A stretch of 64,000 bases of DNA from Euglena gracilis (taxonomy: Eukaryota), in NCBI GenBank assembly GCA_039621445.1, contig CP154954.1, positions 19,640,642 through 19,704,641 of the forward strand, in the 5' to 3' direction. The translations under genes and the position numbers were made by a program. This document shows, piece by piece, positions 37,601-43,600 of this stretch; within the stretch, counting starts at the first letter, position 1; each line of letters begins with the position of its first letter. The notes under the pieces were generated by a model. That model saw only the letters and a list, made by a program, of their open reading frames with translations, was not told where the DNA came from and made no database searches.

Positions 37601-40600
37601 TATTGAACTGAGGGAGGTGCCACACATTTGAAACCCCTAAAAACTTGGTCATCGATGAAGATAAACAATTAAGAAAAAAACACGCAAACTGAGGCCTGAT
37701 CCGATTTGAGACCAAAAAAGGCAGACGATACAGGAGTAGGGAGAAACAGCGTAACGGAATGTGAAATGAACCGGGTGTGGATGCCACCGTCCCCACTGAC
37801 ACAAAACCATGTGGGATGTCCATCGACCTGGGCGGTGGTCTTCTCCCGGCGCACCACCTCCGGGTGGCGCTTCATGTCGGCCAGCTGCCGCATCTCCGCG
37901 AACGTCACCTCCCCCCGCCCGCCATCCAGCAGCATGTATGCCTGCTGGATGAGCCGCAGCCGGTGCTCCGGGATGGGGCCGCGGAGCACGTACAGGAACT
38001 CCTCCACCGAGACCTGGCCGGACCCATCTGCGTCCATGATGGCCATCTGGGGAATGACGCGCAGAAGACGTGCAAGGAGTGCGTAATACCAAATGATAAT
38101 GATGACAAAAATAATGATGATGATGATGATGATGATGATGATATGATAATGACGATGATGATGATGATGATGATGATGATGATGATGATGATGATGATGA
38201 TGATGATGATGATGATGATGATGATGATGATGATGATGATGATGATGATGATGATGATGATGATGATGATGATGATGATGACGACGACGATGATGATGAT
38301 GACGACGACGACGACGATGATGATGATGATGATGATGATGATGATGATAAGCATAATATTTCTGATGATATGATAATAATAAGATGATAATAATGATAAT
38401 AACAATGTAGATGATATTCAAACATACACTTTGCACTTCATTTATTTGTTTACCAACACAAGAAAGCTAAAAATAGAAACGATGTGTGAGCCAATTCCTT
38501 TCAAAAGGGGCAGACCACTTTGTCCATCTGCGTGGAGCTGAGGGCCAGCCCGTAGGTTTGCAGCCCATCCTCGGGGCAGGGTGGCTAACGTGCCCCAACA
38601 CTGTCCATGTGGCTGGGGGAGGCAAAGATTCGACTGGCAGACGCGCATCCCTTGAAAGGAAATGAAAAGAGACAGACAGGTCAGATGCCTATCACTTTTT
38701 ACTCAAGCAACTTGATGGGCATTGCAAACAAAAAAAAGTCACCCAGCCATTCAGCCAGGATTGTGAAACAAAGTCATGGCCATTGCTTTGCGGCCCTGAC
38801 GAAGTTTCAGGGATAGCCAAAACAAATTTCAGCAACCCTGGCCATTGCGGGAACTGCTAGGGCTCCAGGTGCCATGCGAGATGTGGCACCTGTGGCTCAC
38901 ATTCCACATGTTTGTCGCCCTGCAGCATCGCACACACCCCACCCGGCTTGAGTTAAAGGTGGAGAATTCTTTCTTCGGCCCTGGATGAATGGCACTTGTA
39001 CTTCCAGTTTTGACCGGAAATCAATGTCACTGGCCGAGCGGGACGGAGGCAGACGCAGTATGGCCGGCAGCAGTCCACAGAAAGTACGGCCCCTCCAGCG
39101 TTCCATCTGTTCGCCCCAAGCACCCACATGGACAATTGTGCCATTGGCAACACTGGGGGCTTGCAACGAGTGCACCGGTGGCTTGCAAATGGCTGGGGCT
39201 AGTCAGAGCACCCACACCTTGCATAAGAACTTTGGGCAAAAGATAAGGTGGCTGCATGCGTTTTAAGCGTCGTGATTGGATTGCACTGGAGAGGCATGAT
39301 TACAGCATTGCTAATGGCTTGTTCTGAGCTGCGAAGCCGTGTTTAAGTTTACCCAGCCCCGGCAAAAGAATAGAGGCAGTGACAGGCGGGCCGGAAGGCT
39401 GCAGACCCCCCAACGAGAATTAAAACACAACGGCTCAAAACTCACCCCCAACTCGAGTCTTCCATGACAGTTCAAGGCCTACCCCAGCCCACCCCCGCCC
39501 CGGGTGTTCTGCAGCTCGTACTTGTCCAGCATGCGGTTGCCGTTGTCGTCCATGATGCGCAGCACCCGTGTCAGGCCCCGCACCCAGGGCTGTACGGAAT
39601 GGCCTGGTGGAGGGGGGGGGTCGACCCACCCACCCACCATGGTGCCGCCCAAGGATATATTACCTTGAGCCCCGAAATCGCCGAAGAAAATTTTTGATCT
39701 AAAAAAATCGGCGCCCCCAAAAATATGGATCTCTGGAGCGTTGTCTCAGGGTTTCCCACTGATTCGTACTTGGGGACTCCCTTGCCCATTCGTACTTATT
39801 CGTACTTATTCGTACTTATTCGTACTTATTCGTACTTATTCGTACTTCAAAAAAGGGCCATGTATAGCAATCGGTGACCATTTGGTCTGCTTCCTTGGGC
39901 ACATCTTCAACGTTCTGAAACCGGGAAAAGCAAGGAAAACAGGTCATTCACTTGAGAAACTATCTAAGTGACGAACTCATGCTTGGCGAAATTTGTGGAA
40001 AAAATCGCTGTGAGAAAAAAATACAAAACGGTACAGGAAAAATACATTTCTTCTTTGCAGCTGATGTTGTCCAGCATGCCATGCAAGAACATAGCCTCAA
40101 GATGAAACGAGCGGATTGTTCAATGGTGTGCAAAGCGTTCTTCGCAGTCACCATTGCAAAACGTGCCAACGGCTGCTTGCCGAAGGTTAGATGACATGCG
40201 TTGGCGGTTTTGACATCAATCAGTCCTGCCAAACTGAAAGACCGTTCAGACCAGGGCAATTCAATTTTGTGAGCCACACTTTCTTCCCGCTAAGATTTCC
40301 TTATGCTCGCAATATGTGTGGTATACACTCTGTCCACTGACCGGTGCAAACTACTCCCCTCTTTCACACTGCCATGTACAGATGTGTACTTTCGGATGAG
40401 TCCCCTGATGGATGGATGGTCTAACTTGTTGATGGGCAAACCTAAAAATCATTTTCGGAGGGAAAAGAGGACATGAGGCGTCCTGCAGCGTAAGATATGC
40501 ATCACATACAGAGAAGTGTGAGGGGCCCTTCAAATAAGTGCAATGGTGTAGAAAATTGTACCTTTTTCTACTTGGCAATTCGTACTTATTCGTAACTGGG

Positions 40601-43600
40601 GAATTATTCATTCGTACTTATTCGTACTTATTCGTACTTATTCGTATTTTGGCAGATCTCGGCAATTCGTACTTATTCGTACTTATTCGTACTTATTCGT
40701 GTACGAATCAGTGGGAAACCCTGGTTGTCTACCTACCCAAAACTCAAAAAAAAAATGGGTTTTATTTTTCAACCATGATTCCCGTACAGCCCTGCCTGCA
40801 CCCCCGCCTTGCCCCCCTTCCGCGTCACCAGCTCCCGGATCTGCTGCAGCAGTTTGTCCGCCTCCGTGCCAGGGCTGAATGGCCGTGTGGGACCCCCTCC
40901 TGCGAGTTGCCGGCTCAACCCCCCCCATTAGAAATTGTGTTTTCCGCCATACTGATTTGGGGGGGTTACAAGCCACGGAGCGCAGGCCCATGGAACAACG
41001 TCTGGGATGTGTAACCCCCCCCAATTAACCCGGCGGGGTGCCAAGTTATTGGAACCAACGCGCCGTACAGGAATTTTGCCTAAAAAGGGGGTGCCAAATT
41101 ACTGGAACCATCATTTTTACCCCTCCCCCCACCAAGTTATTCGGCCAATGCCAGGGCAAGGGCCCCGCCAGGTTATTTGGGGGGGGGGTTAGGTCACACA
41201 AAGCTAACCTGGCCTGGCCTGCGAGGTGGGTTGAACAGCAGCCTTTCCTCCCGCCACCGACCCATCCTGAGCATTGTTTTCGACATGAAACGCTTTCTGC
41301 AAAGGTCCCTTGATGCTGTATTTTTTCAGGCTGCATATGACTCCTTCAGCTCTGAGTGTGTCAATGAGCAGCCTTTCTTTCAGGGAAGTCGAAAAGGAAA
41401 AAAAATGCGAGCTTTTTGTGGGACCCATTCTGGGTGGGGGGGGGGTTGGCCTCTCCCCACGGCAGGCAGTCCATTCCACACTGCTTGCTGCCTGCAGCAG
41501 GAGCTGCCTCTGTGAAGAAACGTTGATCCGTTGAACGAAATGGGACGGGGCATTGTATTTCTCCGCCTGAACTGGTGGGGGGAGGGATGCGTCGGGGACG
41601 AGAGAGCTGACCGCCCCCGGAGAAAAAATGCTGCTCTTGTGCAGCCAGCCGAGGGACGTGAAAGGGATCTCTGACGGGAGATTCCTTGAAGACTTCGGAG
41701 GAGGTGGGTCCAGCCCAGGGACTTATCACCCTTCCCCCCCCCCAACGACCGGTAACCTCTGTCCTCCGACCGGGGGGGGGGGTCGTTCGACATAGAGGGG
41801 GGGGGTCGCTGAGCTCCCTTTATGGGTGAGAGCGAAGCTAACCCCTGGGCAAAATGGGGGGGGGGGTCGAACCCCCCCGGGAACCACCCTCAGGAACCGG
41901 CAGATTATTACCATGATCCCGGCTCCGTTCCTGGAACCCTTTCCCAGCTGCGAGCGAGGGGATTTCTAATTTCCAAATCACCTCCGTTTGACCCCCAACT
42001 CCGGCCAGGCCCGAGTTATTCAGAGAAAATTTCAAAGGAAATGTCCGGAGACCTAAATTGAAGCCCTTAAAATGCCCTATCGAACAGGATTTTGATTTCC
42101 CTGCAACTCCCGGACCAGGCCGAAATATGGCCGATTTACGACCCAAAACAACGCGAAACGCTTGCAACTTAGCCGTTGTTTGTGTCAAAAATTCAATTTT
42201 CCAAAATTTCTCAAAAATGGTGGGGAATCAAAGAAAATGTACGGAGACCTAAATTGAAGCCCTTAAAATGCCCAATCTAACGGTATTTTGATTCGCCCGC
42301 AACTCCCCGCCTGCCTAAGTTACGGCCATTTTTCGGCTAATTTGGGCCATCTCGTGCAGTTTTGGCCAGTTTTGACTCAGCCTCTTTCGGCCATTTTTGG
42401 GTTAAAAAAAAGTCGAAAAAAATCAAAAAAAACAAAAAAATTGCCCAAAACCATGTTTTTTGGCTTCCTGGACCCGGAAAAACCTTTTTTCAAGCCGAAT
42501 CAGCGTTTTTTGAACCCCCGGCCCCCCATTTTTGGCCCCAAACCCATGCATTTTGGGTCATTTCCGGGTCAAAAAAGTTGAAGAAAATTTACACAACTGG
42601 CATAAATTTCAAAAATTATTGTAAATTACCATAAATTACAGGTGTGTAATATAAATCATAAATTACGCCAAATTTGCATTACTAGTCTTTTTGGCTGCCC
42701 ATTGCATGCAAACCCCATTCAGAGCTCAGCACTATTCAATACCTGGTAAGACACGGGGGATTGGGTGCCCCATGTTTGCAGGGGGGAAATGTGCAACTTA
42801 GCCCTTCAAATTATGCAAGTCAAAAAAATGAAAAAAAAATGAAAAAAAAATTGCAAAAAAATGCAAAAAAAAATTGCAACTTGCATAAAACCCCTGAGAA
42901 AAGGCTAGAATATAACAGAGTTTTGCTGCTTAAAATTCGTAAACATGTGGCAATGCCGGTGTACCTGTCAATGATTCACAAGAAGACCTCCTGGAAGACA
43001 ACGGCAAGCACTGAAGCTTTGAAAATGAACATGAATGCCGCCTGCATGTTCAGTCTAAGCAAATCGTCCCTCCAGGTCACCATTGAACATCAATGAAGCG
43101 GCGGCACGTCGCATTTTATTGCACAACGTGGAACGCAACTTGGTATCAACACACCCAGCAAGACTGAACGAACGTGGTGGCACACCCTTCTGCATTGTAT
43201 AACACTACATTTGGATTTCACACATGAAGAAGTGTGTGCTTTCAACGTCAGCAGAGGTGGTGGGAATGGTCAGCAAAAACTTGGCAACTTGGGCGAGGGC
43301 ACCACTGTGCTTCGCCCAATACTACATAAGAGAAACGGAATCTGAAGGGAACACTTGCTCCACGCGGCAATACCGCTGCCAATCCCCTTGAAATTCGGTA
43401 TCATTCACAGCGAACGAAAGCATGGGGTATTGTGCAGGCTCGTGGGACAAGTCCGGAAGATTCCACAAAACTACAAAAAATTACAAACTACAAAAATCCA
43501 GGGCAAAATACTTTATGCAAAAAAATGCAAAAAAAAATGCAAAAAAATGTAAATTATGCAAGTTGCATATTCCCCCCCCCTGCTGAATGTATGTATGGGA

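Follow-up and report, generated by a model that had tools for sequence, protein, structure and literature searches.

A nonconventional intron of Euglena gracilis that coincides with a transposable element and one copy of its 8-bp flanking repeat

The stretch of Euglena gracilis DNA analyzed here (contig CP154954.1, positions 19,640,642 to 19,704,641; “the window,” 64 kb long and numbered from its first letter) includes two genes with many introns, both on the minus strand. The first, running from 49868 to ~34645, encodes a calcyphosin-like product of 561 amino acids (aa), with two calcyphosin-like EF-hand units in tandem, and has 18 introns: 11 with GT/GC-AG borders and 7 that are nonconventional (NC). 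In the PDB, one of its exons matches a “calcyphosin-like protein” (6.8e-8), RIB57, a protein of cilia (6.1e-7), and calcyphosin 3e3r (2.3e-6); its score for Pfam EF-hand_1 is also above the cut-off. The second, from 33300 to 19443, encodes a DEAD-box helicase and has 17 introns, 9 of them GT/GC-AG and 8 NC. The subject of this report is an NC intron of the first gene, at 39580-40797, made up of a transposon-like element and eight additional nucleotides, along with a related intron in the helicase gene and the MITE (miniature inverted-repeat transposable element) family to which both belong. An earlier note on this DNA had singled out the first of these introns and likened its host protein to calcyphosin, which by the PDB and EF-hand exon matches was right in kind.

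The NC introns of Euglena have a splicing code of their own, 5'-N3CDG-/-CH'GN5-6 with a purine (R) as the next exon base, established by knock-ins in Euglena; the 5' spacer of 3 nt is obligatory, while the 3' spacer is 5 nt, with 6 tolerated (Nomura et al. 2025, PMC12501133).

Evidence for the intron boundaries comes from RNA and protein sequences. The region 38450-50900 was aligned with two raw RNA read runs (X21 and X24), a probable RNA contig set (X15), and a DNA contig set with a different organism label (X5). Nine X21 reads (with six start positions), three X24 reads, and one X15 contig join 39579 to 40798 and thereby skip 1218 nt. The X5 DNA lacks this joint, and its contigs 38450-39774 and 40747-41055 cross both junctions uninterrupted. 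Six letters fit either side of the joint, giving seven equivalent placements of the cut, none of them with GT-AG or GC-AG borders. Only one of the seven, 39580-40797, fits the arrangement N3-CAG/CTG-N5 followed by a purine, with AGG as N3, GGTGC as N5, and G as the next exon base; on the minus strand this intron begins with AG and ends with GC. Under every placement the mRNA junction is GGGGTGCGGGGCCTG, the sequence the earlier note had predicted, and the transcripts do carry it. A transcript-derived protein, P0042 (561 aa, EG_transcript_6694), spans the junction, reading KGGKAGVRGLTRVLRIMDDNG and RKGGKAGVRGLTRVLRIMDDNG, and matches the query exon with 100% identity; GVRGLTRVL is found at the junction in both P0042 and P0043. 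In the predicted fold of the pre-mRNA, by minimum free energy and centroid alike, the 13-nt inverted ends pair within a stem that starts with the first base of CAG. No back-joint for this intron is among the 15 joints listed (there are 93 further joints). The feature at 39580-40797 is a genuine nonconventional intron of an E. gracilis gene.

The intron is accounted for, nucleotide by nucleotide, by an element bearing terminal inverted repeats (TIRs) at 39585-40794, 3 nt (AGG) upstream of it, and 5 nt (GGTGC) downstream. On the minus strand, with slashes for the cuts, the layout is GCGGGGGTGC/AGG-CAGGGCTGTACGG ... CCGTACAGCCCTG-GGTGC/GGGGCCTGACA. The terminal 13-mers are complementary at all 13 positions. 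The eight nucleotides on either side of the element, GGTGCAGG and GGTGCGGG, are 7/8 identical, in the 8-nt register only, and differ at the intronic position 40797; the spliced mRNA keeps the G variant of the downstream repeat and loses the A at 40797. If the flanks are read as a target site duplication (TSD), the two intronic spacers add up to one TSD copy. The perfect TIRs, the 7/8 flanks with the mismatch in the intronic part, and the arithmetic of 3 + 5 were all put forward in the earlier note, and each is borne out, the last by the RNA joint in its only code-fitting placement.

Neither the inverted ends nor the flanking repeats are expected by chance. The counts of copies and of TIR matches and the BLAST comparisons are confined to the window. 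With up to two mismatches allowed, the TIR 13-mer is found 12 times, where 1.26 are expected and none of 100 shuffles reaches 12; a scan at lower stringency (at least 9/13), with 61 matches as compared to 27-55 in shuffles, was uninformative. For random pairs of 8-mers from the window, the probability of an identity of at least 7/8 is 0.0012, and of at least 6/8, 0.0072. Among 153 CAG..CTG pairs with a TIR match of at least 10/12, three have flanks at least 7/8 identical, and none of the 153 control flanks is as similar; two of the three are copies of the element family described below, the third one being located within an (AC)n tract.

The element is not a unit, as the earlier note had taken it to be. 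Its 1210 bp are two nested transposons: a 233-bp outer MITE, split into two arms, and a 977-bp insert between them (Table 1). The insert, at 39747-40723, ends in a perfect TIR of 23 nt, CAGGGTTTCCCACTGATTCGTAC; it also contains (GTACGAATAA)n arrays in subterminal position, and a 7-nt repeat flanks it, GTTGTCT on the plus strand. Both TIR pairs form stems in the minimum free energy and centroid folds. A “joint” at 40166-40448, seen in RNA and X15, skips 281 nt of the insert, with 21 other letters in between; since it matches the shorter copy of the insert at 16221-16926, it represents other genomic copies rather than splicing.

Table 1. Coordinates of the introns, transposon-derived features, and flanking exons discussed in the text.
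Feature	Coordinates	Strand	Evidence
NC intron, 1218 nt, calcyphosin-like gene	39580..40797	-	RNA joint and protein P0042
Upstream exon (EADKLLQQIRELVTRKGGKAGV...)	40798..40864	-	RNA joint, P0042
Downstream exon (..RGLTRVLRIMDDNGNRMLDKYELQN)	39506..39579	-	RNA joint, P0042
Upstream TSD copy, GGTGCAGG; first 5 nt exonic, last 3 nt the intron N3 spacer	40795..40802	-	
Downstream TSD copy, GGTGCGGG; first 5 nt the intron N5 spacer, last 3 nt exonic	39577..39584	-	
TIR on 5' side of intron (“A-end” of MITE), CAGGGCTGTACGG; CAG at intron +4..+6	40782..40794	-	
TIR on 3' side of intron (“B-end” of MITE), CCGTACAGCCCTG; CTG at intron -8..-6	39585..39597	-	
Outer MITE, A-arm, 71 nt	40724..40794	-	Aligns with other family copies
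Outer MITE, B-arm, 162 nt	39585..39746	-	Aligns with other family copies
Nested non-autonomous element, 977 bp	39747..40723	-	TIRs; second copy at 16221-16926
Frameshifted hAT transposase C-terminus remnant (..SERSFSLAGLIDVK..) in nested element	40120..40289	-	hhalign against alignment A1
Copy 2 of outer MITE, 285 bp, with both TSD copies, GGGCATGC and GGGCATGT (7/8)	35208..35492	-	Alignment, TSD scan
NC intron, 228 nt, DEAD-box helicase gene	20685..20912	-	Protein P0041
Neighboring NC intron, 622 nt, AAG-CAGTGTGGAATGG...CCATTCAGCCCTG-GCACG/G	40865..41486	-	RNA joint 40864 to 41487
Decayed hAT transposase C-terminal remnant inside GT-AG intron	43055..43480	-	PF05699, E=0.0086

The outer MITE belongs to a family with three complete, non-coding copies in the window: copy 1 (233 bp without its insert), copy 2 (285 bp), and copy 3 (220 bp), in addition to fragments such as that at 12386-12545. 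The copies align along their length, with both ends and a central module in common (alignment A2), and the similarity stops short of their flanks, unlike what segmental duplication would give. The TIRs are complementary at 13/13 positions in copy 1, at 11 of the first 12 in copy 2, and at 10/13 in copy 3. In a comparison of the k nucleotides preceding each copy with the k nucleotides that follow (k = 4-11), identity peaked at k = 8 and nowhere else in all three (7/8, 7/8, and 6/8), other registers giving no more than 5/10. The nested family behaves differently: both of its copies have a repeat at k = 7 (7/7 and 6/7), and only 1-2/8 in the 8-nt register. With its TIRs, its fixed 8-nt TSD, and its dispersed short non-coding copies, the outer element is a MITE family.

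Copy 2 separates the insertion from the splicing. It lies inside an NC intron of the calcyphosin-like gene, 35096-35952, 112 nt from the 3' end of this intron as mapped with P0042, and it has TIRs and both repeats without being an intron itself; the TIRs and the 8-nt repeat are therefore features of the insertion rather than of splicing. This bears on an explanation already in print for an 8-nt direct repeat, the one at NC intron 4 of the gapC gene of Euglena agilis ACOI 323, a recent gain; this repeat was ascribed to double-strand-break repair (Milanowski et al. 2016, PMC4770533). Applied here, the 8-nt repeats would result from intron gain by such repair, and the inverted ends from selection for the terminal stem of NC introns. 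It agrees with this that all 15 of the window's NC introns whose borders are known show some terminal complementarity, most of them without repeats. Selection on the ends would not, however, make three copies alike over their whole length, nor would it give copy 2 its TIRs and 8-nt repeat where there is no intron, and the repeat is exactly 8 nt in three copies of three. The depth of DNA words over the left arm, a rough measure only, is also well above single copy. Break repair is thus a very improbable source of these introns.

Copy 3 provides a second case. The NC intron at 20685-20912, in the helicase gene, consists of this copy (20690-20909) plus GAC as N3 and ACTGC as N5, with G as the next exon base; its flanks are 6/8 identical. 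Its host protein, P0041 (566 aa, EG_transcript_7585), is transcript-derived, with 18 exons mapped and every residue placed, and can be read across copy 3 only if 20685-20912 is removed. Before the insertion, this site would have been a single ACTGCGAA in an uninterrupted exon. Two genes in 64 kb accordingly have similar introns with transposon hallmarks, 39580-40797 and 20685-20912, and both introns fit the NC code rather than that of spliceosomal GT-AG introns. The earlier note had suggested searching for TIR copies that coincide with whole introns; within the window this is the one that such a search adds, with the same 3 + 5 arrangement. Its occurrence in an unrelated gene makes the note's term “introner-like” a fair one. 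Alignment A2 shows copies 1 and 3 to be oppositely oriented, and since their host genes are both transcribed from the minus strand, the outer MITE can be spliced in either orientation relative to transcription.

From these structures we infer an order of events beginning with transposase-driven transposition at the DNA level. A short MITE (220-285 bp, with TIR CAGGGCTGTACGG and an 8-bp TSD) would have entered a coding exon, duplicating GGTGCGGG, and a 977-bp non-autonomous hAT-like element would later have entered that MITE. In the pre-mRNA the TIRs would pair, bringing together CAG at +4..+6 and CTG at -8..-6, and the NC splicing machinery would leave 3 nt between its upstream cut and the stem, and 5 nt between the stem and its downstream cut. 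In either TSD copy the cut would then come after position 5 and before position 6, so that the element and exactly one TSD would be removed and the reading frame restored. That the two junctions of NC introns have the same pyrimidine/purine step (PMC11282704) would be explained as well, each junction being one and the same dinucleotide of a duplicated 8-mer; the steps found are C/A and C/G for copy 1, and C/G and C/G for copy 3. MITE insertion followed by NC splicing is considered to account for 39580-40797 with a probability of roughly 0.85.

Spread at the RNA level would be another way to arrive at similar introns in different genes, and for this there are precedents of a sort: NC introns leave as full-length circles (review PMC11282704, citing Guminska 2021), and circle-mediated intron transposition has been discussed for yeast (PMC11146597). 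The family could then have moved as circular introns, reverse-spliced or reverse-transcribed into new sites. Such a circle would join N3, the element, and N5, and its re-insertion would not recreate 8-nt repeats matched to each target. Three different 8-mers flank the three copies here, and the ends of copy 2 are not splice sites. Movement through RNA is accordingly given very little credence as compared to DNA-level insertion of the MITE.

Several observations do weigh against MITE insertion followed by NC splicing, in whole or in part. The exact cut cannot be placed from RNA alone, the seven placements being equivalent in this respect. In the one other DNA label compared, X5, the insertion is present at both junctions; neither an empty site nor a polymorphism for its presence was observed. 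No autonomous partner for the outer MITE was found in the 64-kb window or in metagenomes, where a scan with the 18-nt TIR end gave 51 loci, mostly in one gut-bacterial gene and none with an inverted partner within 3 kb, that are attributed to chance. Only two of the 15 NC introns in the window have flanks at least 6/8 identical, and when the ends of 13 were compared by BLAST, similarity to other copies was confined to the two MITE introns. Finally, the nested element, which has the hAT remnant, gives repeats of 7 nt rather than 8 in both of its copies.

This last point concerns the superfamily of the outer MITE, which the earlier note had called hAT-type. Elements of the hAT superfamily typically have CAG/TAG termini and 8-bp TSDs, with 5'-YARNG at the TIR terminus. 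Like Ac/Ds elements, the outer MITE has an 8-bp TSD and short TIRs beginning with CAGGG, and such elements have non-autonomous derivatives as well; this much of the note's designation stands. The remainder does not follow as directly. The outer MITE has no coding remnant, and its TIRs are linked to no hAT coding sequence; it is the nested element, the one with 7-nt repeats, that carries a remnant of the hAT dimerization domain, and the step from “8 bp” to “hence hAT” is weakened thereby.

The evidence for hAT sequences in the window begins with a remnant at 43055-43480, which lies within a 2666-nt GT-AG intron. Its match to PF05699, the hAT dimerization domain, is 16.3 bits, below the cut-off of 21.4, and a word-index protein search with it gave 288 candidates, none of them at E<=0.01. 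An exhaustive HMMER search found 39 relatives at E<=1e-3, from which a family alignment, A1, was assembled; PF05699 was found in four of ten relatives scanned, twice above the gathering cut-off. Two frames of the nested element, collinear and with a frameshift between them, match A1 in hhalign comparisons with probabilities of 93% (E 3e-7) and 96% (E 3e-9), and this match to a hAT C-terminus family identifies the nested element as a non-autonomous hAT derivative. A Pfam scan of its open reading frame alone had no match, so that the remnant is seen by profile comparison only. The remnant at 43055-43480 likewise shows that hAT elements exist in the E. gracilis genome.

There are a few further observations on these sequences. 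Relative to 19 of its relatives, the remnant at 43055-43480 has a 22-residue (66-nt) insertion with a stop codon inside, between ..TSADVE and RSFSLAG.., and X5 word depth suggests tens of copies of this region. Another CAGGG-terminated element, at 54826-55541, has a 7-nt flank repeat (7/7). Repeats of 7 nt are then found with the CAGGG-ended elements at 39747-40723, 16221-16926, and 54826-55541, two of which have a hAT transposase remnant, a length unexpected for hAT.

If the structure is as described, the outer MITE might nonetheless have been mobilized by a superfamily other than hAT: Merlin, P-like, or an unclassified one. Its lack of coding remnants would agree with this, as would the 7-nt repeats of the sole hAT-derived element here, and the fact that its TIR has only CAGGG in common with the nested TIR. 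Two Merlin families with 8-bp TSDs, F1 and F2, have been reported from E. gracilis (PMC8101967), and in TSD length the outer MITE is like them. Merlin elements have TSDs of 8-9 bp and TIRs that begin with GG in all families, however, those of E. gracilis included (PMC8101967), whereas the TIR of the outer MITE begins with CAGGG, with CA/TG in an inverted rather than a direct repeat. CAG/TAG ends in combination with an 8-bp TSD are the classical hAT signature, and hAT remnants are found in the same genome. A non-hAT source is a real possibility, if not quite an even bet; that the outer MITE is hAT-like is put at about even odds.

A broader hypothesis would be that NC splicing as such is a scar-free, RNA-level excision of MITEs with CAG ends and 8-bp TSDs, that its code is the fossil of TSD geometry, and that most NC introns are decayed insertions. 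The identity of the 8-nt flanks of the 15 introns with known borders is 7, 6, 5, and 4 in one case each, 3 in five, 2 in four, and 1 in two. With the signature in only two of the 15, the window does not demonstrate that MITE origin is general, and the hypothesis is tentative, rather less probable than not. The remaining introns may be old, the intronic halves of their repeats being free to drift, or they may be of other origin. The NC intron next to that of the outer MITE, 40865-41486, has a TIR match of 10/13 and flanks 5/8 identical; BLAST of its ends against the window gave no significant match to the outer MITE family, and it may be an older relative. If the hypothesis were true, such a MITE could enter an exon in either orientation with immediate neutrality, provided that position 6 of the TSD is a purine, and both the abundance and the lineage specificity of NC introns (71.8% of E. 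agilis introns) would be explained.

Some introns of the two genes depart from the NC code. In the helicase gene, 22055-22311 fits N3-CAG/CTG but has a 4-nt 3' spacer, and 26993-27417 and 22376-22553 are without the CAG/CTG core. The last intron of the calcyphosin-like gene, 34675-34973 (minus strand), is NC and has CAG at +4..+6 but ATG at -8..-6; despite its mismatched core, it is missing from the transcript-derived protein.

Other features of the window are recorded here for completeness. After 44717, in a coding exon of the calcyphosin-like gene, a T is missing, shifting the frame between the two calcyphosin-like units; an extra T is present here in 65/80 X21 reads, 12/14 X24 reads, one X15 contig, and one X5 DNA contig, and its absence probably reflects either an error of assembly or an allele. 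A microsatellite, (ATG)n with ~79 units, occupies 38093-38400, inside the GT-AG intron 38047-38515 of the same gene, and further long microsatellites are found at 13635-13994, 30682-30982, 32591-32934, and 51042-51588. A 168-bp element at 62761-62928, with a 17-nt perfect TIR (CAGGCTTTTGCTTA...), lies within an (AC)n tract; its 8/8 flank match is uninformative because of the microsatellite. At 58834-59147 there is a long palindrome with 40-nt perfect arms, in which a 31-nt inverted repeat is nested (58904-59077), flanked by 26-nt tandem repeats.

That NC introns may derive from MITEs is not a new proposal. It was made in 2014, together with the observation that direct repeats blur the intron borders (Milanowski et al. 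2014, PMC3935182). This ambiguity would be explained by the TSD geometry described here. A 2024 review draws NC introns with TIRs (CAG/CTG), “TSD-like” repeats, and pyrimidine/purine junctions (PMC11282704); a 2025 paper on diplonemids considers MITE origin plausible (PMC12621601); and Nomura et al. call the origin of NC introns unclear, with MITE-like elements as a possible source (PMC12501133). In the openly searchable literature, which excludes supplements and subscription journals, no element family or superfamily was found to be named for Euglena NC introns, nor was there a report of intronic and non-intronic copies of one element, or of 3 + 5 as the length of a TSD. The earlier note had left open whether its arithmetic was already published: it was not found in print within this scope, in contrast to the origin from MITEs, the TSD-like repeats at junctions, and the repeat of 8 nt at a young intron. 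What appears new, within the same scope, is a case at the level of an element family and the explicit equation of 3 + 5 with the TSD.

Three states of this family are found in the window: a young intron, for which there is RNA evidence; an older intron of another gene, in the opposite orientation; and a copy that is not an intron. The experimentally defined spacers of 3 and 5 nt sum to the TSD of the family, which makes the MITE hypothesis one that can be counted genome-wide. The value of the locus is as a test case for a transposon-derived class already proposed, rather than as a new kind of system.

The introns resemble published NC introns in several respects: they lack GT-AG borders; have CAG at +4..+6, CTG at -8..-6, spacers of 3 and 5 nt, and a purine as the next exon base; and end in a stem. 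In comparison to those of PMC12501133 and PMC3935182, the stem is here formed by the TIRs of a MITE family with dispersed copies, whose TSD is equaled in length by the two spacers together; the available portions of these papers treat MITE origin as possible and name no element family, superfamily, or link between spacers and TSD. In comparison to the gapC intron of E. agilis, related copies are present here in another gene and in another intron, while none is described in the corresponding portions of PMC4770533. A further parallel is with the introners of Micromonas and Aureococcus and other transposon-derived introns, also MITE-like elements with TIRs and TSDs that make introns in many genes, and in which part of the TSD enters the splice geometry (PMC11282704; Huff et al. 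2016 cited there). Introners are spliceosomal, however, with one splice site provided by the element itself and a 3-nt TSD from which the AG is co-opted (PMC11282704), whereas the outer MITE takes the nonconventional route, with both cuts inside the TSD copies and in either orientation.

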